Shown here: in pieces, positions 4,624 through 37,927 of the stretch
How the letters are laid out: every line of letters starts with the position of its first letter
How positions within the stretch are numbered: position 1 is the stretch's first letter
Assembly: GCA_903859075.1 (NCBI GenBank)
Contig: CAIOLF010000024.1
Location: forward strand, 5,048-69,047
DNA from: Candidatus Buchananbacteria bacterium
GTDB taxonomy: Bacteria > Patescibacteriota > Patescibacteriia > 2-01-FULL-39-33
Length of the DNA: 64,000 bases
Direction of reading: 5' to 3'
Notes under the pieces: model-generated
Database searches by the model: none
What the model was told of the DNA's origin: nothing
What the model saw: only the letters and a program-made list of their open reading frames with translations
Position numbers and translations under genes: made by a program

Positions 4624-5076
4624 ATGACCAATATTTACATAGATGTTTGTTGCCATACGCCCAATGCTCATCTCAAGGGCAGAGAAGTGACCGGCGATTG
4701 TTTTGCCGGCGTTTATATTATTAATGAGGACGGACAGGAACATAAATTTCAGGCGGCAATAGGAATAATGACTAACCCGGAGGCATACATTAATGCGGCT
4801 TTTATAGCTCTAGTCAAAGCTAAGAGTGTTGGAGTCAATGGCGAGGTGAAACTTAATTCTAGTCATGATGTCTTGATCGGTTGGTTATCTGGACGGTATG
4901 GCATTAAACTTCAGACGATTAAGGATATTAGTAGTCAGATCAAGGAATTAGCCAAGGAATTCGATCAAGTTTACTATCAGGTGGTAGATAAGAAAGATAA
5001 AGGTATCACTATGGCTAAGATTCTGGCCAAAGGGCAGAAAACATTAAGTGGTTCCAAGCCCTCCGAGGCTGTTTAA
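4624..5076 (+). CDS. hypothetical protein, possibly a degenerate RNase H-like fold
   Basis: 150-aa ORF directly downstream of the previous ORF; IYIDVCC...NAAFIAL...SSHDVLIGWL loosely resembles RNase H strand/helix order but lacks a clear catalytic Glu. Confidence 0.3.
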   Translation: MTNIYIDVCCHTPNAHLKGREVTGDCFAGVYIINEDGQEHKFQAAIGIMTNPEAYINAAFIALVKAKSVGVNGEVKLNSSHDVLIGWLSGRYGIKLQTIKDISSQIKELAKEFDQVYYQVVDKKDKGITMAKILAKGQKTLSGSKPSEAV

Positions 5077-5404
5077 GAAGGATTCTGCTTCCATAATGTC
5101 ATCTTAGTCATCTATGGAATTATAGGCACCTCTAAACAGCCCTCTTCAACCAGAATCGTGTAAGTATACTTTGGTCATAAAATCAATATTTTATAAATCA
5201 TTTACCACTAGATTTTGGAAATAATTCTTTAGGCAAAACTTTCCGTCCATAGAAGTCCATAAACTCCAAAATCGACTTCAATTCTTTGAGGCTAGCATCT
5301 CGAATTGCCTGTCTGTATTCGTTGAGAATGGTTCTATAATCGTTCGATGCGCGGAGCCATAGTGTATTACCCCCCCCCCATTTCCCGCCACTTTCCAATT
5401 AATT

Positions 5405-5433
5405 TTGACAATTTTTTATATTTCTATAATATT
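5405..5433 (+). promoter_or_regulatory. sigma70-like promoter (TTGACA-16 nt-TAATAT) ahead of a long 5' leader
   Basis: TTGACA at 5405-5410 and TAATAT 16 nt downstream; the downstream ORF starts about 270 nt later. Confidence 0.35.
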
Positions 5434-5707
5434 AGATTACGGCTTTAGGCCAACATGCGGCTTAGGGTTCGAGGGTTATCTCACTTTGAGACCCGCCTCA
5501 TTGCCGGGGATGACACAAGCTCCCCGGCACGAGAATTCCTCTTCCTAGGAAGAGTTTGATCTTTAGATAATTCATCCCTAGAGAAAGTTCTTTTGAGTCG
5601 CAGTTTTAGACGGAGGCAAAAGATTGTCCGATTAGCTTCCTTGAGAGTTGGTCACTGCAACATAATGGTACGGGCATGGCCCGGTGCTAAGCGAAGGAGA
5701 ATCCTGC

Positions 5708-30252: not shown

Positions 30253-31381
30253 TTATAATACCGAAATTACTTTTTTAATCTTGTATCCTTGGCAATGCTG
30301 GAGCAGCCCCAGATATGATTGTCGGCTTTGCTTCAATTTTTCAGCGCCAAGTAATCCAGATTCGGTTAGCAAGCGTTTTTCTTTCAACTTTTTTAGCATC
30401 CTTCTTTTGGTCTTGGTCCGTAAAACGCGATGATCAAAAAAATTAATCATGCCTAAAAAATCAACGCCCGAAGATAGTGTCTTAATAAAAATCTTGTCCG
30501 GATGTAAGGCTAATTTAAGTTTGTTTGACAAATAATCGCCTATCAGCGGAATTAAATTTTCCAAATATACTTTGTCGTCAAAAAATATTACAAAATCGTC
30601 GGCATAACGGATATAATGCTTTATTTTTAACTCATGTTTGATAAATTGATCAAATTTATTCAGATAAATATTGACCAGCAATTGCGAGGTAAGGTTGCCG
30701 AGCGGCAGGCCATGCGCCTTTGTATTTTCCCCCTCCCCTTTATAAGGGGAGGGTTGGGGAGGGGTAATTTCCGAATTATCATTACCCCCTCTGGCTCCCC
30801 GTTTGAAAGGGGGAGAAAAAAACACCTGCCGCAAAACTATCAATCACCTCATCCAATAAACCTAAAATTCTCTTATTGGGAATATATTCAGCTAAAATAT
30901 TTTTTAATATTCGATGGTCGATACTGGCAAAAAATTTCCTGATATCGCCTTTCAAAATCCAGCAAGTATGGGTATTATTTTTACTAACCGCATAGGCGAA
31001 TTTCTGGAATCTGACTAGGGCTTTATGCGTCCCTTTCCCTAGCCGGCAAGAATAGGAATCGCTGATGAAAATGCGATCGAAGAAAGGATACAAAATCCGA
31101 TAAATGGCATGATGGACTAATCTGTCCCTGACGCCGGCTTTATGGATGTTTCGGGGTTTGGGATCGCAGATGTTAAAGGCCTGATAGCCGCCATGGCGAT
31201 AATTGCCAGTTGCCGGATCAGAGTGCAATGCGATAAGATTATTCATGAGGCGCGATTGGAACTGCTGGACGTCTGATTTATTTCTTTTGCCTTTGATAAA
31301 TTCTCGCCAGGCGGATAATAAATTTTCTAAACTAATAATATCTTCAAACGTATGGCTCAATTGGATTTTGTTCCGGTTCAT
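30253..31381 (-). pseudogene. DGR-type reverse transcriptase, split into two frames by a ~100-bp GC-rich palindromic insertion (a homopolymer error is an alternative)
   Basis: N-part (frame A, to 30782): SLENLLSAWREFIKGKRNK, KPRNIHKAGVRDRLVHHAIY, SYSCRLGKGTHKAL, ILKGDIRKFFASIDH; C-part (frame B): HGLPLGNLTSQLLVNIYL (DGR hallmark GNLTSQ), IRYADDFVIFF, LHPDKIFIK; the frames differ by 1 nt across the insert at 30721-30821. Confidence 0.75.
30721..30821. mobile_element. GC-rich palindromic miniature element (copy 1), two CTCCCC-loop-GGGGAG hairpins in inverted orientation, inserted in the RT gene
   Basis: ccccctcccctttataaggggagggttggggaggggtaa ... taccccctctggctccccgtttgaaagggggag; compositionally alien to the AT-rich flanks; second copy at 62749-62852. 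Confidence 0.6.
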
Positions 31382-31778
31382 AATGATAAAATAAATTCTA
31401 CCCCCCCCCTCGTCCACGAATTTATTCATTTTTAATAAAGCCGTTGCCGCGTACAAATCGTGGCATGAGTGGCTGAAAAACTTTCCCAAACACTCGCGCT
31501 ATGCTCTGGGCTCGCGGGCCGACCAGATATTTCTTGATCTGCTGGAACTGCTGTTTACGGCCGGCTATCTGCCTAAAAATAAAAAACTGGAGCCGGCAAT
31601 AAAATCCATCGGCAAAATAGATCTGTTGAAATTTTATCTGCGCTTATGCTGGGAAATGAAACTTCTAAGCGACAATAAATTCCAAATTCTGGGTGTAAAA
31701 ATGGAGGAAATCGGCCGGCTGTCGTGGGCCTGGAAAAATAATTTAGAAAAAACATCCTCGCCGGAAGCGAAGATGTAA
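31352..31778 (+). CDS. Avd-like four-helix-bundle accessory protein, antisense to the RT start; continuously in frame only from 31395
   Basis: translation from 31395: ...NLFIFNKAVAAYKSWHEWLKNFPKHSRYALGSRADQIFLDLLELLFTAGYLPKNKKLEPAIKSIGKIDLLKFYLRLCWEMKLLSDNKFQILGVKMEEIGRLSWAWKNNLEKTS, which fits the TIGR02436/Avd pattern (L.vwq.a...FPK.e.y.LgsQ...); ATG 31352 is in frame only if the C9 run (31401-31409) were C8. Confidence 0.45.
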
Positions 31779-31793
31779 AGCAAAAAACCGCTG

Positions 31794-31916
31794 GCGGACA
31801 ACCGCGAAACGCCAGTTGTCGTTGAAGTCATTCTCAATCCTGTTGAGGTTCAGGTTGCGCTTCTGATCATTCCTGTTCAGATACGCGAAGTTGCGATTGC
31901 CATCGGGATGAAGCCG
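31794..31916 (-). repeat. DGR template repeat (TR)
   Basis: about 123 bp aligning to 32174-32296 at +380; at 23 mismatch positions this copy has T on the plus strand (A on the minus sense strand); encodes an AAY-rich Asn tract in the target frame. Confidence 0.85.
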
Positions 31917-32085
31917 ATTATACGCCCGATACCGTCAGGAACACCGCCGATTGAATGCTCTCTCGGCTGAATCTTGCTTGGGATCTTTAAATCCGCCAGT
32001 ATCGGGCGCCAAGCAGTTTTTTGTTTTTTTAGGTATTCCCGAGCCGTAGCCGGGGAAATATTAACCTACTTTCATTATAGATAAA

Positions 32086-32132
32086 TATGTTAAAAAGAAA
32101 AAGGCCTGCCCGACAGAAATCGTCAGACAGGC
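32086..32132 (-). terminator. hairpin plus U-tract downstream of the DGR target gene/VR
   Basis: minus-strand gcctgtctgacga-tttc-tgtcgggcaggc followed by ctttttctttttaac. Confidence 0.5.
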
Positions 32133-32155: not shown

Positions 32156-32857
32156 TCAAGGAGCCACCTGCTCGCGGACAACCGCGAAACGCCAGCCGTC
32201 GCGGAAGCCATCCCCAACCCTGCCGAGGTGCAGGTAGCGCCTCCGACCACCCCCGTCCAGATCCGCGAAGTCGCGAGAGCCACCGGGATGAAGCCGGATA
32301 CTTCCGAGCGCGGCAATCGGAAACTTCCGTTGCAAGTCGCGCTGCGTCGCTCCCAAAGCCAGCAACTCCTCGATACGCGCGAAGCGGTACCGATAGCCGG
32401 CTTTTTGCTCGGCCAGCCACTGGTTGACCGCTTCCAATTCGGCGATGACCGCATCGCCATTGTTGAAATAGCGGTCAAAGTGGAGCAGTTCCACTTTTAC
32501 GGCCGTCTTGCCGATTCCCTTGACGGGAAAATGCTCAGCCGTGATTTCGGGATGAACGGAGTCATACCCACCGGCAGAGATCATTTGCCCCAGGTCTTGG
32601 CTGAAGTCAACCACAACAGCCCAGGTCGACTCGAAGTATTTGGAGACGACTTCAGCGGCCTGTCGCGCTTCCGCGACAATCATTTCGGCGATCTTACGGA
32701 GTGTCTCCTCGCCTTTGGCGCTTGCCAAATAGCAGATGCACTCTCCGACATTACCGCCTACCTCCTTGATAAACTTCACGAGAGCGATAATGACCTGCTC
32801 GATCATGCCCATCAGTGACACGATCAACTCCGGTTTTTCCGATGTTCCTTTGGCCAT
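32156..32857 (-). CDS. DGR target (variable) protein, 233 aa, with the VR in the C-terminal ~40 codons
   Basis: AAAGGAGG lies 7 nt upstream of ATG (32857); C-terminus ...IRLHPGGSRDFADLDGGGRRRYLHLGRVGDGFRDGWRFAVVREQVAP is encoded by the VR; GC-rich; no obvious signal peptide. Confidence 0.7.
   Translation of the reverse strand: MAKGTSEKPELIVSLMGMIEQVIIALVKFIKEVGGNVGECICYLASAKGEETLRKIAEMIVAEARQAAEVVSKYFESTWAVVVDFSQDLGQMISAGGYDSVHPEITAEHFPVKGIGKTAVKVELLHFDRYFNNGDAVIAELEAVNQWLAEQKAGYRYRFARIEELLALGATQRDLQRKFPIAALGSIRLHPGGSRDFADLDGGGRRRYLHLGRVGDGFRDGWRFAVVREQVAP
32174..32296 (-). repeat. DGR variable repeat (VR)
   Basis: see TR; all differences lie at TR adenine positions (one exception at 31883/32263). 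Confidence 0.85.
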
Positions 32858-33178
32858 GGTAGGCCTCCTTTCGATTTTCGGCTCGCCCCTCATTCCGGAC
32901 CAATTCCAGAACCCCAGACTCGCCAAATGTACCGCCATATTTATAGCATATTATTTATATTTTGTCAATAATTTTGAAACATTTTCAAATTGACAAATAT
33001 TTTATTTAAATTTGAATAAAAAAAATAAAAGGGCAGGCACAAGGCACTGCCCCCTACAATATGCAATACTAATTAATAAACCTAATAAAAAGTCCTCAAA
33101 ATATCCCTAAAAAATAATTGCCACGACTTCTTTTTTTTGCTATAATTACCTTGTTAAACTAGCTAAAATAACCCCTAA

Positions 33179-36025: not shown

Positions 36026-37927
36026 CTATTTAAACCAATATTCTAATATTTCCCTAGCAATCGGGGTGGCAACGCTGCTGCCCTCCCCCCCCTCTTCAAA
36101 TAGCACCGTAACGGCAAAAGTCGGATTATCATAAGGCGCGAAGGCGGTAAACCAGGCATGATTTTTTTTGGTGGTGTTCCACTGAGCCGTGCCGGTCTTT
36201 CCCGCTACCGCCACTTTGAAATCACTCAGGCTCTTAGCCGACCCGGTTTTCACCGTTTCTCGCATGCCCTCCCTGACAATATTGATGTTTTCCTTGGAGA
36301 TAAAATTCTCCCTGACAATTTGGGGCGGAAAAGATTCTTTGCTGCCGTCGGGGCGCACTAGGCCCAGCGCCAGATGCGGCCGCAAATATCTGCCGCCGTT
36401 AGCGACAGTTGCCGTCCAAGCATTGACTTGCAGCGGCGTCACTAGCAAGTCGCCCTGACCGATCGAAATATGGTAAGTATCGCCGATATACCATTGTTCT
36501 TTTTTTACTTCTTCTTTCCATTGCGGCGTCGGCACAAAGCCGCCGCGTTCTCCGGGCAGATCAATGCCAGTCGGCTCTCCCAGGCCGAAAAGACGGAAAT
36601 ATTTTACCAGCCGGTCTACCCCTAAACCTTTAAAATCGCCGAAACCGCCCCCGATATAATAAAAGAAGGTGTTGACCGACTGAGCAATGGCTTTAATGAC
36701 ATTAGTGGCGCCATGTCCGCCAGCCTTCCAATCTGGGAAAAACCACTCTTTTACTTTCAGTCCTCCGGTACTGTTAACGATCGTATTTATGGTGATTATT
36801 TTTTCTTGCAAGGCCGCGGCGGCGATTGTCGGCTTGATAGTGGAACCGGAGGGATATTCGCCAAAAATCGACCGGGTAAACAATGGCTTATTGGGATCTT
36901 CCAATAGTTTTTTATAATCATCCGGCTTGATGCCTGGGGCAAAAAGATTATTATCATAGCTGGGATAATCAACCAAGGCCAAAATCTCTCCGGTCTGAGG
37001 ATTAGAGACCACTACCGAACCGCGGCCGTCCTTGATATGATTTTGTAAAATCTCATAAATCTTTTTTTGCAGCTGGCAGTCAACCGATAAAATCAGGCTA
37101 GCGCCGGCGACGTACTGGGTCTGGGAAATGACTTTCTTTTCCCGGCCCAGAGCATCAACTTCGATTCTTTTTTGTCCACGCTGTCCTTTGAGGTAGCTCT
37201 CATATTGCTTTTCCAGTCCCGCTTTGCCAATGTTGTCGCTAAGCAGATAAGTGCTTTTATTCTTCTCGTACGCCGGGGCATCAATCTTGCCGACATAGCC
37301 CAAAAGGTGAGACCAAGATGGTCCGGCCAGATATTGCCTCCAAGAATCAATATCCAGATAAACTCCTGGCATGTCCGAGCTGATTATCTTCAAATACATC
37401 GCCTGCTCATAACCAATACCAGTCTTAATAATAATCGACTGATAATAATACTTTGAAGAATCCTTGAGCTTAGCTTCAATCTCCTGGCTGGTAATTCCCG
37501 CCAGAGAGGCGGCCGTATTTATGACTTCGCTTCTTTTATCGCTATCTTTGGGCAGGTCGGCGGGTATAATCGACAAAGAAAAGCCAAACACATTCTGCAC
37601 CAAGGACTGTCCATTGCGGTCATAGATAATGCCGCGATCGGCCTTGGTGTATTCGGTCTTAATCCGATTTTCTTCAGCCAAAGAAAAATAATAATCGCCT
37701 TTGATTATCTGCAGATAAAAACTCTTGGCAAACAATACGACCAAGCCGAGCAGCAGCAGCAGATAAAATAATCTGATTTTTTTAGCAGTCAAGGACAAGC
37801 TTAAAAAACCGGCACCCGCGCCGGAAGAAATTGAAGTGGGCGAACTAAAACTGTCCTCCACCCAGCGGACTGAGCTTTTTCTCTCCAAGTCAACATTTTT
37901 GCTTTCAAAGAATATATTGTTTTTCAT
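36026..37927 (-). CDS. mrdA: penicillin-binding protein 2 (peptidoglycan D,D-transpeptidase MrdA)
   Basis: PBP dimerisation and transpeptidase domains (STIKP, SxN, KTGT); last gene of the mreBCD-mrdA cluster. Confidence 0.85.
   Translation of the reverse strand: MKNNIFFESKNVDLERKSSVRWVEDSFSSPTSISSGAGAGFLSLSLTAKKIRLFYLLLLLGLVVLFAKSFYLQIIKGDYYFSLAEENRIKTEYTKADRGIIYDRNGQSLVQNVFGFSLSIIPADLPKDSDKRSEVINTAASLAGITSQEIEAKLKDSSKYYYQSIIIKTGIGYEQAMYLKIISSDMPGVYLDIDSWRQYLAGPSWSHLLGYVGKIDAPAYEKNKSTYLLSDNIGKAGLEKQYESYLKGQRGQKRIEVDALGREKKVISQTQYVAGASLILSVDCQLQKKIYEILQNHIKDGRGSVVVSNPQTGEILALVDYPSYDNNLFAPGIKPDDYKKLLEDPNKPLFTRSIFGEYPSGSTIKPTIAAAALQEKIITINTIVNSTGGLKVKEWFFPDWKAGGHGATNVIKAIAQSVNTFFYYIGGGFGDFKGLGVDRLVKYFRLFGLGEPTGIDLPGERGGFVPTPQWKEEVKKEQWYIGDTYHISIGQGDLLVTPLQVNAWTATVANGGRYLRPHLALGLVRPDGSKESFPPQIVRENFISKENINIVREGMRETVKTGSAKSLSDFKVAVAGKTGTAQWNTTKKNHAWFTAFAPYDNPTFAVTVLFEEGGEGSSVATPIAREILEYWFK

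Follow-up and report, generated by a model that had tools for sequence, protein, structure and literature searches.

Background

In the diversity-generating retroelement (DGR) of Bordetella phage BPP-1, the accessory gene avd adjoins the template repeat (TR) and a DGR-type reverse transcriptase (RT). The Bordetella Avd protein is a pentamer that binds the RT and is needed together with it for cDNA synthesis; these properties are known for Bordetella Avd only. How DGR mutagenesis is naturally turned on and off is largely unknown, and continuous mutagenesis would erase useful variants. We analysed a DGR in a stretch of 64,000 nucleotides (hereafter the window: positions 5,048 to 69,047 of contig CAIOLF010000024.1, assembly GCA_903859075.1) from a Candidatus Buchananbacteria bacterium, a member of the Patescibacteria or Candidate Phyla Radiation (CPR). 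Here avd likewise adjoins TR and RT, and a run of nine cytosines (C9) leaves its upstream start codon out of frame with the remainder of the gene.

The Avd of the window and that of BPP-1 (Protein Data Bank (PDB) entry 4DWL; bRT-Avd-RNA complexes 8UB7, 8UB8 and 8UBE) have a four-helix-bundle fold and membership of the Pfam bAvd family in common, at only about 15% sequence identity. In contrast to BPP-1, the window has avd on the opposite strand between TR and RT, where it overlaps the 5' end of the RT gene and carries a disordered N-terminal leader that bears the repeat. To our knowledge, and as far as the 4DWL sequence represents it, the avd of BPP-1 has no repeat-carrying leader.

The layout of the window has a described counterpart. 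Wu et al. 2018 (PMC5758913) describe, in their architecture section, a 'TR-(avd)-RT' order in which avd is reversed in orientation; they designate it architecture B3 and give its share of the DGRs in their CPR set as 90%. Its gene order and orientation, as given there, are identical to those of the window. A first-pass annotation of this DNA had called it unusual for avd to lie antisense between TR and RT, a description that does not hold for CPR, as the same arrangement is found in every relative in which the RT is in view. That section and the text-searched parts of the paper mention no repeat tract or frame variation in avd; the 'frame shift' discussed there concerns the variable repeat (VR).

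A second set of described systems is formed by the contingency loci based on simple-sequence repeats (SSRs), in which poly-G/C tracts or other short repeats lie near the beginning of coding sequences in Neisseria, Haemophilus and Campylobacter (PMC11868660), with phage examples reported in a preprint (PMC12633550). Such loci share with the avd tract a repeat of at least nine mononucleotides or at least eight dinucleotide units soon after the start codon, a reading frame set by the number of units, and a tract length that differs between otherwise identical sequences. They differ from it in that the classical targets are surface structures and restriction-modification genes, whereas the gene affected here encodes the cofactor of a targeted hypermutation machine, in uncultured CPR hosts. 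Repeats also occur in divergent or overlapping promoters, as in the TA repeats between hifA and hifB of H. influenzae and the poly-C tracts of the Bordetella fim promoter. Like these, the avd repeat lies in a short region shared by two divergent genes; unlike these, it is located inside the reading frame of one of them, and no promoter elements can be assigned to it. DGRs, Avd, architecture B3 and repeat-based phase variation were all known before this work; the comparative result on the avd tract is new. Full-text literature searches on DGR or Avd together with phase variation returned no report of a repeat tract in avd; Paul et al. 2017, a key CPR paper, lay outside these searches, so an earlier mention is possible.

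Results

An intact Avd core behind an out-of-frame start

The plus-strand frame at 31395-31778 is open over 127 codons and encodes a true Avd. Its translation matches the Pfam profile PF22296 (bAvd) with 47.9 bits, above the gathering cutoff of 40 (E 2e-12), and the NCBIfam profile NF033474 (DivGenRetAVD) with 57.9 bits over profile positions 2-102 of 104 (E 1e-15), the latter score being below the strict equivalog cutoff of 80. The profile search that the first-pass annotation had proposed as a check on its Avd-like four-helix gene thus upholds the assignment. A search with the protein repaired to C8 returned eight homologues at 63-88% identity. Five of these (P0001-P0004 and P0006) are 142-154 aa long, begin with M-x-Q at the equivalent ATG, read through the tract, and cover 93-100% of the repaired window protein. 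All 41 family-invariant residues are kept in the window, and the pN/pS ratio of the core is 0.16 relative to L004, the closest in-frame relative. With the core intact at this ratio, purifying selection has acted on avd, which is no old pseudogene.

The fold was assessed on the ON allele P0001, the protein of that same closest in-frame relative, which is 88% identical to the window protein. Its AlphaFold model (mean pLDDT 87) is a confident four-helix bundle over residues 20-133, with helices at 20-40, 45-69, 78-100 and 106-133 and with residues 1-19 disordered. Foldseek places this model in the 23S-IVS/Avd fold, with Avd chains of 4DWL and 8UB7 superimposing at target-normalised TM scores of 0.82-0.90 and an rmsd of 1.5-2.1 Å. 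A sequence search of the PDB with the family profile reached 4DWL only at E 0.95, and the fold search was needed to make this link.

On the plus strand, the ATG at 31352 is followed by the leader codons MAQLDFVPVHNDKINS(T) (31352-31400), which overlap the first 10 codons of the RT gene head-to-head, by the C9 repeat at 31401-31409 (G9 on the RT strand), 16 codons past the ATG, and by the Avd core frame at 31410-31778, of which 31776-31778 is the stop codon. The longer open frame begins directly after a TAA at 31392-31394 and contains no ATG, GTG or TTG before codon 78; its first canonical start is the TTG at 31626, 77 codons in. This bears out the statement of the first-pass annotation that the frame lacks a start of its own. 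Translation from ATG 31352 gives MAQLDFVPVHNDKINSTPPLVHEFIHF* and stops after 27 codons. It would enter the Avd core only if the run were C8, as had been pointed out, or C11, which would serve equally. The tract in the window is accordingly in the OFF state, and no other canonical start serves the Avd core.

Within the window, CCC makes up 22% of proline codons and PPP is absent from the 36 long open reading frames (ORFs). Homopolymer runs of at least eight occur inside nine other genes; all of them lie in intact ORFs, and the genes are tightly packed. General homopolymer errors in the assembly, which we considered as a source of the frame break, are unsupported by these runs, as they leave their frames unbroken. 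We take C9 to be probably real, because the window is cleanly assembled, because dinucleotide alleles of relatives show a like pattern of in-frame and out-of-frame states, and because variants occur in contigs at 8-14x coverage.

A simple-sequence repeat at the same site in relatives

We compared the avd region with that of relatives, all of which are Patescibacteria metagenome-assembled genomes or groundwater metagenome contigs. A simple-sequence repeat is found at the position of C9 in every lineage checked at the DNA level. The repeats are C9-C11, (CA)8-10, (GA)11 or (CT)11, and are interrupted in two lineages. The upstream ATG is in frame with the core in L009, L001/2/3/15 and L010/11 (all C10), in L018 (C9), in L026 ((CA)8), and in L004/5 and L006/7/8/16/24, where the tract is interrupted (C5 and C6TC3, respectively). 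It is also in frame in four lineages that were found via a called protein: L028 ((GA)11), L029 ((CT)11), L030 (C10) and L031 (C11). Out of frame are L022 (C9); L012 and L023 (C9, where C10 would be in); L013 and L027 (C11, where C9 or C12 would be in); L014 and L017 (C10); L021 (C11); and the Saccharibacteria-type L019/25 ((CA)10) and L020 ((CA)9). In the relatives as in the window, all frame breaks of avd map exactly to the repeat.

In three pairs of sibling contigs, each obtained from separate samples, tract length is the sole difference or nearly so. L009 and L022 align over 1293 nt with no mismatches, the former being C10 and in frame and the latter C9 and out; L026 and L020, at 99.4% identity over 3343 nt, are (CA)8 and in frame and (CA)9 and out, respectively; and L013 and L017 have no mismatches over 5352 nt and carry C11 and C10. 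Two features of contingency genes are thus seen here: a slippage-prone tract in the 5' coding region and, in relatives (L009/L022, L013/L017, L020/L026), a tract length that varies between otherwise identical sequences and toggles the frame. Alleles with C10 and C11, and likewise with (CA)8 and (CA)9, occur side by side in the Hainich groundwater series (ERZ1292623, ERZ1292629, ERZ1292635, ERZ1292640 and the H43/H51 MAGs). C10 and C11 are both represented in contigs at 8-14x coverage (L014 and L027).

Long repeats, defined here as mononucleotide runs of at least nine or at least six dinucleotide units, are concentrated at this site: the 17 distinct loci surveyed, 130,457 nt in total, contain 16 of them, of which 15 are at the avd tract. 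The peptides that the tract encodes differ among lineages (PPP, HTHT, RERE and LSLS), as does the codon phase of the C-runs. Since CCC is also only a minor proline codon in the window, it is the DNA repeat that is conserved and under selection, and not a peptide motif. A tract kept for a PPP motif required by Avd was considered and is ruled out by the CA, GA and CT repeats (encoding HT, RE and LS), by the varied phase of the C-runs, and by the disorder of this segment in the structural model. On the other strand, the tract lies 11-27 nt upstream of the RT start.

At the protein level, an Avd profile search over 1.84 billion cluster representatives gave 1263 matches, of which the best 150 (50%-identity clusters; P0009-P0158) were examined. 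In 30 of the 114 representatives whose N-terminus is intact, helix 1 is immediately preceded by PPP(P) or a dipeptide repeat; PPP is found 27 times among 2,704 N-terminal residues, compared with three times among 16,068 others. The remaining 36 of the 150 are N-terminally truncated calls that begin past the start of helix 1, e.g. MPKNLRYTLG... Some of these truncated calls may be alleles that are out of frame at the repeat, for which the gene caller resorted to an internal start.

Eight lineages, including the window, have no canonical start other than the upstream ATG, and in five a start codon follows the tract. Where no start follows the tract, six alleles are in frame and four out; where one does, one allele is in frame and five are out, in each case from small numbers. 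A split in this direction is what one would expect if the frame were important in lineages whose sole start is the upstream ATG. In two relatives (L031:300-370 and L012:1258-1313) there are two ATGs in different frames upstream of the C-tract, so that an in-frame start would be available at two out of three classes of tract length, which would bias a switch towards ON.

The DGR cassette of the window

The DGR itself is identified by an adenine-specific TR/VR pair of which the VR ends an intact target ORF. The target gene (32156-32938, minus strand) encodes 260 aa without a Pfam match, and its C-terminal 3' end is the VR (32168-32297, minus), which is homologous over 130 nt to the TR (31788-31917, sense on the minus strand). 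The TR contains 34 adenines. Among 27 TR/VR mismatches, 23 fall at TR adenines (18 A>G, 3 A>C and 2 A>T) and four at other bases. A strong hairpin with a U-tract at 32104-32132 (minus) comes directly after the VR and target gene. It may act as the terminator of that gene, or correspond to the GC-rich inverted repeat found downstream of the VR in some DGRs.

The avd gene lies on the strand opposite to the RT, the TR sense strand and the target, and ends approximately 10-16 nt before the TR homology. It is divergent from the RT gene, with 5' ends that overlap head-to-head by 30 nt, such that the avd ATG is antisense to the His codon of the RT motif QLSH and the RT ATG (31381) is antisense to a His codon of avd. 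The strand, the overlap and the distance to the TR are all as the first-pass annotation had given them. In all of the fetched relatives whose sequence includes the RT, avd diverges from it on the opposite strand, and the target lies further on. The cassette is thus an accessory-gene avd DGR of Patescibacteria with the standard CPR layout TR-(avd)-RT.

Reverse transcriptase and its insert

The RT gene occupies 30253-31381 on the minus strand and starts at Met 31381. This start, which the first-pass annotation had preferred, is conserved in relatives, with stop codons just upstream of it; because of these stops, the G-run is outside the RT coding sequence. An RT start at the upstream TTG 31489, by which the G-run would encode GGG, is ruled out by the relatives' stops between the tract and the conserved Met. 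The profile RVT_1 matches both halves of the RT, the YADD motif is present, and a tblastn search with the RT of L012 matched the window RT in two frames at 76% and 58% identity.

The RT is not intact as sequenced. A frameshift that the first-pass annotation overlooked splits it into the frames 31381->30782 and 30843->30253, the break being inside a 121-nt insert rich in GC hairpins (30712-30832, minus) between the IDSF and GLPLGN motifs. The frame would be restored by the loss of one base, for which a T7 or a C5 run within the insert is a candidate site. The insert contains two GC-rich hairpins, CCCCTCCCC/GGGGAGGG and CTCCCC/GGGGGAG. In relatives the same site mostly has 6-24 nt, the longer inserts being those of L001 (78 nt) and L013 (195 nt), both in frame, and the insert of L013 holds hairpin modules similar to those of the window. 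To judge from these sequences, the site looks like a hotspot of small palindromic insertions. As both avd and RT are out of frame, the element as sequenced is probably inactive.

Conserved RNA structure around the TR

RNAalifold and pair counts over 12 lineages gave a combined structure of 30 pairs, consisting of a domain on the 5' side of the TR and a hairpin on its 3' side. In this structure, 94.6% of cells are paired, compared with 33-51% in slid controls, and 23 of the 30 pairs show compensatory changes. The conserved 5' domain (31923-32008, minus), directly 5' of the TR, is a 12-bp stem enclosing two hairpins, and 10 of the 12 pairs of the outer stem are changed on both sides. Directly 3' of the TR is a hairpin with a U-tract (31742-31776, minus) that resembles an intrinsic terminator and overlaps the 3' end and stop codon of avd on the other strand. 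A hairpin differing in sequence, with compensatory changes, and then a T-rich stretch is found in 11 of the 12 lineages; the stretch available for the twelfth stopped short. A search of Rfam with the TR-flanking structure and the RT insert gave nothing but one microRNA match at chance level (E 0.09).

The structure flanking the TR probably serves B3-type elements as the scaffold of their DGR RNA. It confirms the orientation of the TR transcript, and suggests that this transcript ends before running antisense through avd. Given a terminator-like hairpin directly after the TR, the RT would need its own promoter near the tract. A consensus scan for promoters found none at the tract, and inspection by eye of the surrounding sequence, which is coding on both strands, gave no assignment.

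Other C-runs in the window

The only other long repeat of the window is a C10 at 5370-5379, within a gap of 600 nt that is poor in ORFs (5077-5683). Read on the minus strand, it is situated seven codons into a 66-aa ORF (5198-5398; MESGGKWGGG...), and it adjoins a promoter-like TTGACA-16-TAATAT site at approximately 5405-5432. No Pfam or Rfam match was found for this site, which may be another length-variable one. A shorter C8 at 36085-36092 (G8 on the coding strand) is near the 3' end of an intact 633-aa gene (36026-37927).

Discussion

We consider it moderately probable that the repeat is a contingency-type switch on Avd, which in the window stands at OFF. By this reading, a hypermutable simple-sequence repeat 16 codons past the avd ATG, inside a short disordered leader peptide, would change its length by replication slippage; each change would move the only canonical start into or out of frame with the four-helix core; and the adenine mutagenesis of the target gene would be turned on and off stochastically and reversibly. 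Because Avd is required together with the RT in the Bordetella system, an OFF tract should silence mutagenesis reversibly. We infer, in addition, that tract length varies at a high rate within populations, that Avd is initiated at the upstream ATG and, by analogy with Bordetella, that loss of Avd would stop mutagenesis in these CPR elements.

Several observations weigh against such a switch, and the comparative results need to be interpreted cautiously. Among the loci found by tblastn, which are unbiased with respect to frame, four distinct alleles are in frame and seven out, close to the chance expectation of about one third. A canonical start directly follows the tract in L006 (ATG), L012/L023 (GTG) and L021 (GTG), and slightly later in L013 (ATG); in these lineages the upstream ATG is mostly out of frame. 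In such relatives Avd may be made regardless of tract length, with the tract in the 5' untranslated region (UTR). Given its position just upstream of the RT start, the tract could act on the RT instead. The frameshift in the RT of the window fits decay of the element, single tract lengths may be miscalled in relative contigs of very low coverage, and the OFF state could be leaky if RNA polymerase slips on the tract or ribosomes slip by +1 on CCC-C.

The first-pass annotation had offered phase variation and a basecalling error as alternatives. Slipped-strand variation was the right alternative to raise, and the comparative data favour a real, conserved, length-variable repeat. An error of assembly or basecalling would mean that the true tract is C8 (or C11) and avd intact, the conserved tract being real but stable. 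G/C homopolymers of at least nine are error-prone, a single-base correction suffices, and some of the related contigs have only 0.5-3x coverage; however, the long runs in nine other genes of the window leave those genes intact, the ON and OFF states are also seen for (CA)8 and (CA)9, which pose no homopolymer problem, the C10 and C11 variants come from better-covered contigs (8-14x), and a stable tract does not account for the persistence of four repeat types at a single site. We regard this explanation as very unlikely. A decaying cassette, in which the avd and RT frameshifts mark a non-expressed DGR remnant and the tract is merely where one mutation happened to fall, would account for two independent frame breaks in one cassette and for the four non-adenine TR/VR mismatches. 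It is nevertheless improbable in view of an Avd core that is intact over 127 codons with all invariant residues and a low pN/pS, an intact target ORF, and mismatches that are mostly at TR adenines; moreover, the avd and RT breaks are each one base from repair, the avd base being in the C9 tract and hence reversible, and non-A changes are described in Wu et al. (PMC5758913), in the parts concerned with CPR DGRs, as common there. Decay of the element and a switch on Avd are not mutually exclusive.

The repeat might instead work chiefly from the opposite strand or through RNA, by setting the spacing of a promoter or 5' UTR of the RT or of both genes, as in the hifA/hifB and fim parallels, with the avd frame a side effect; or programmed slippage might yield some Avd from every allele. 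The retention of the tract even where a start codon follows it, the near one-third fraction of in-frame alleles among the unbiased loci, and AT-rich, -10-like sequences after the G-run in several lineages (e.g. TAGAAT in the window and in L004) speak for such a role; the terminator-like hairpin after the TR, which implies a separate RT promoter near the tract, keeps the tuning of RT expression by the repeat alive as an explanation. Against it stand the consensus scan, without a sigma-70-like promoter at the tract, and the division of the alleles, which are mostly in frame where no start follows the tract and mostly out where one does. Both strands are coding here, and this constraint on the flanks prevents motifs in them from being judged. 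As to slippage, the shift needed is +1 in some alleles and -1 in others, which rules out a single programmed ribosomal frameshift as a general explanation. Taken as a whole, action on the other strand or at the RNA level seems to us unlikely as the main function of the repeat.

Returning to the contingency-type switch on Avd, a broader form of it may be put forward tentatively, as possible but doubtful: many CPR DGRs of the TR-(avd)-RT type could carry, where avd and the RT gene overlap head-to-head, a selected hypermutable repeat that serves as a heritable, reversible and stochastic master switch of targeted hypermutation, gating the translation of Avd and possibly also, via the other strand, the expression of the RT. 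Annotation pipelines and surveys of DGR activity should take the tract into account, as about a quarter of the Avd representatives examined are truncated calls. If the reading is true, a switch on an obligatory cofactor would provide a simple form of control that needs no regulator, which would suit the tiny genomes of CPR, and it would be a rare case of one mechanism of localized hypermutation, the contingency locus, controlling another, the DGR. A lineage might in this way preserve a useful form of the target protein, with diversification continuing in a minority of its cells. If the switch is confirmed, it would give a testable answer to the question of how DGR mutagenesis is turned off.

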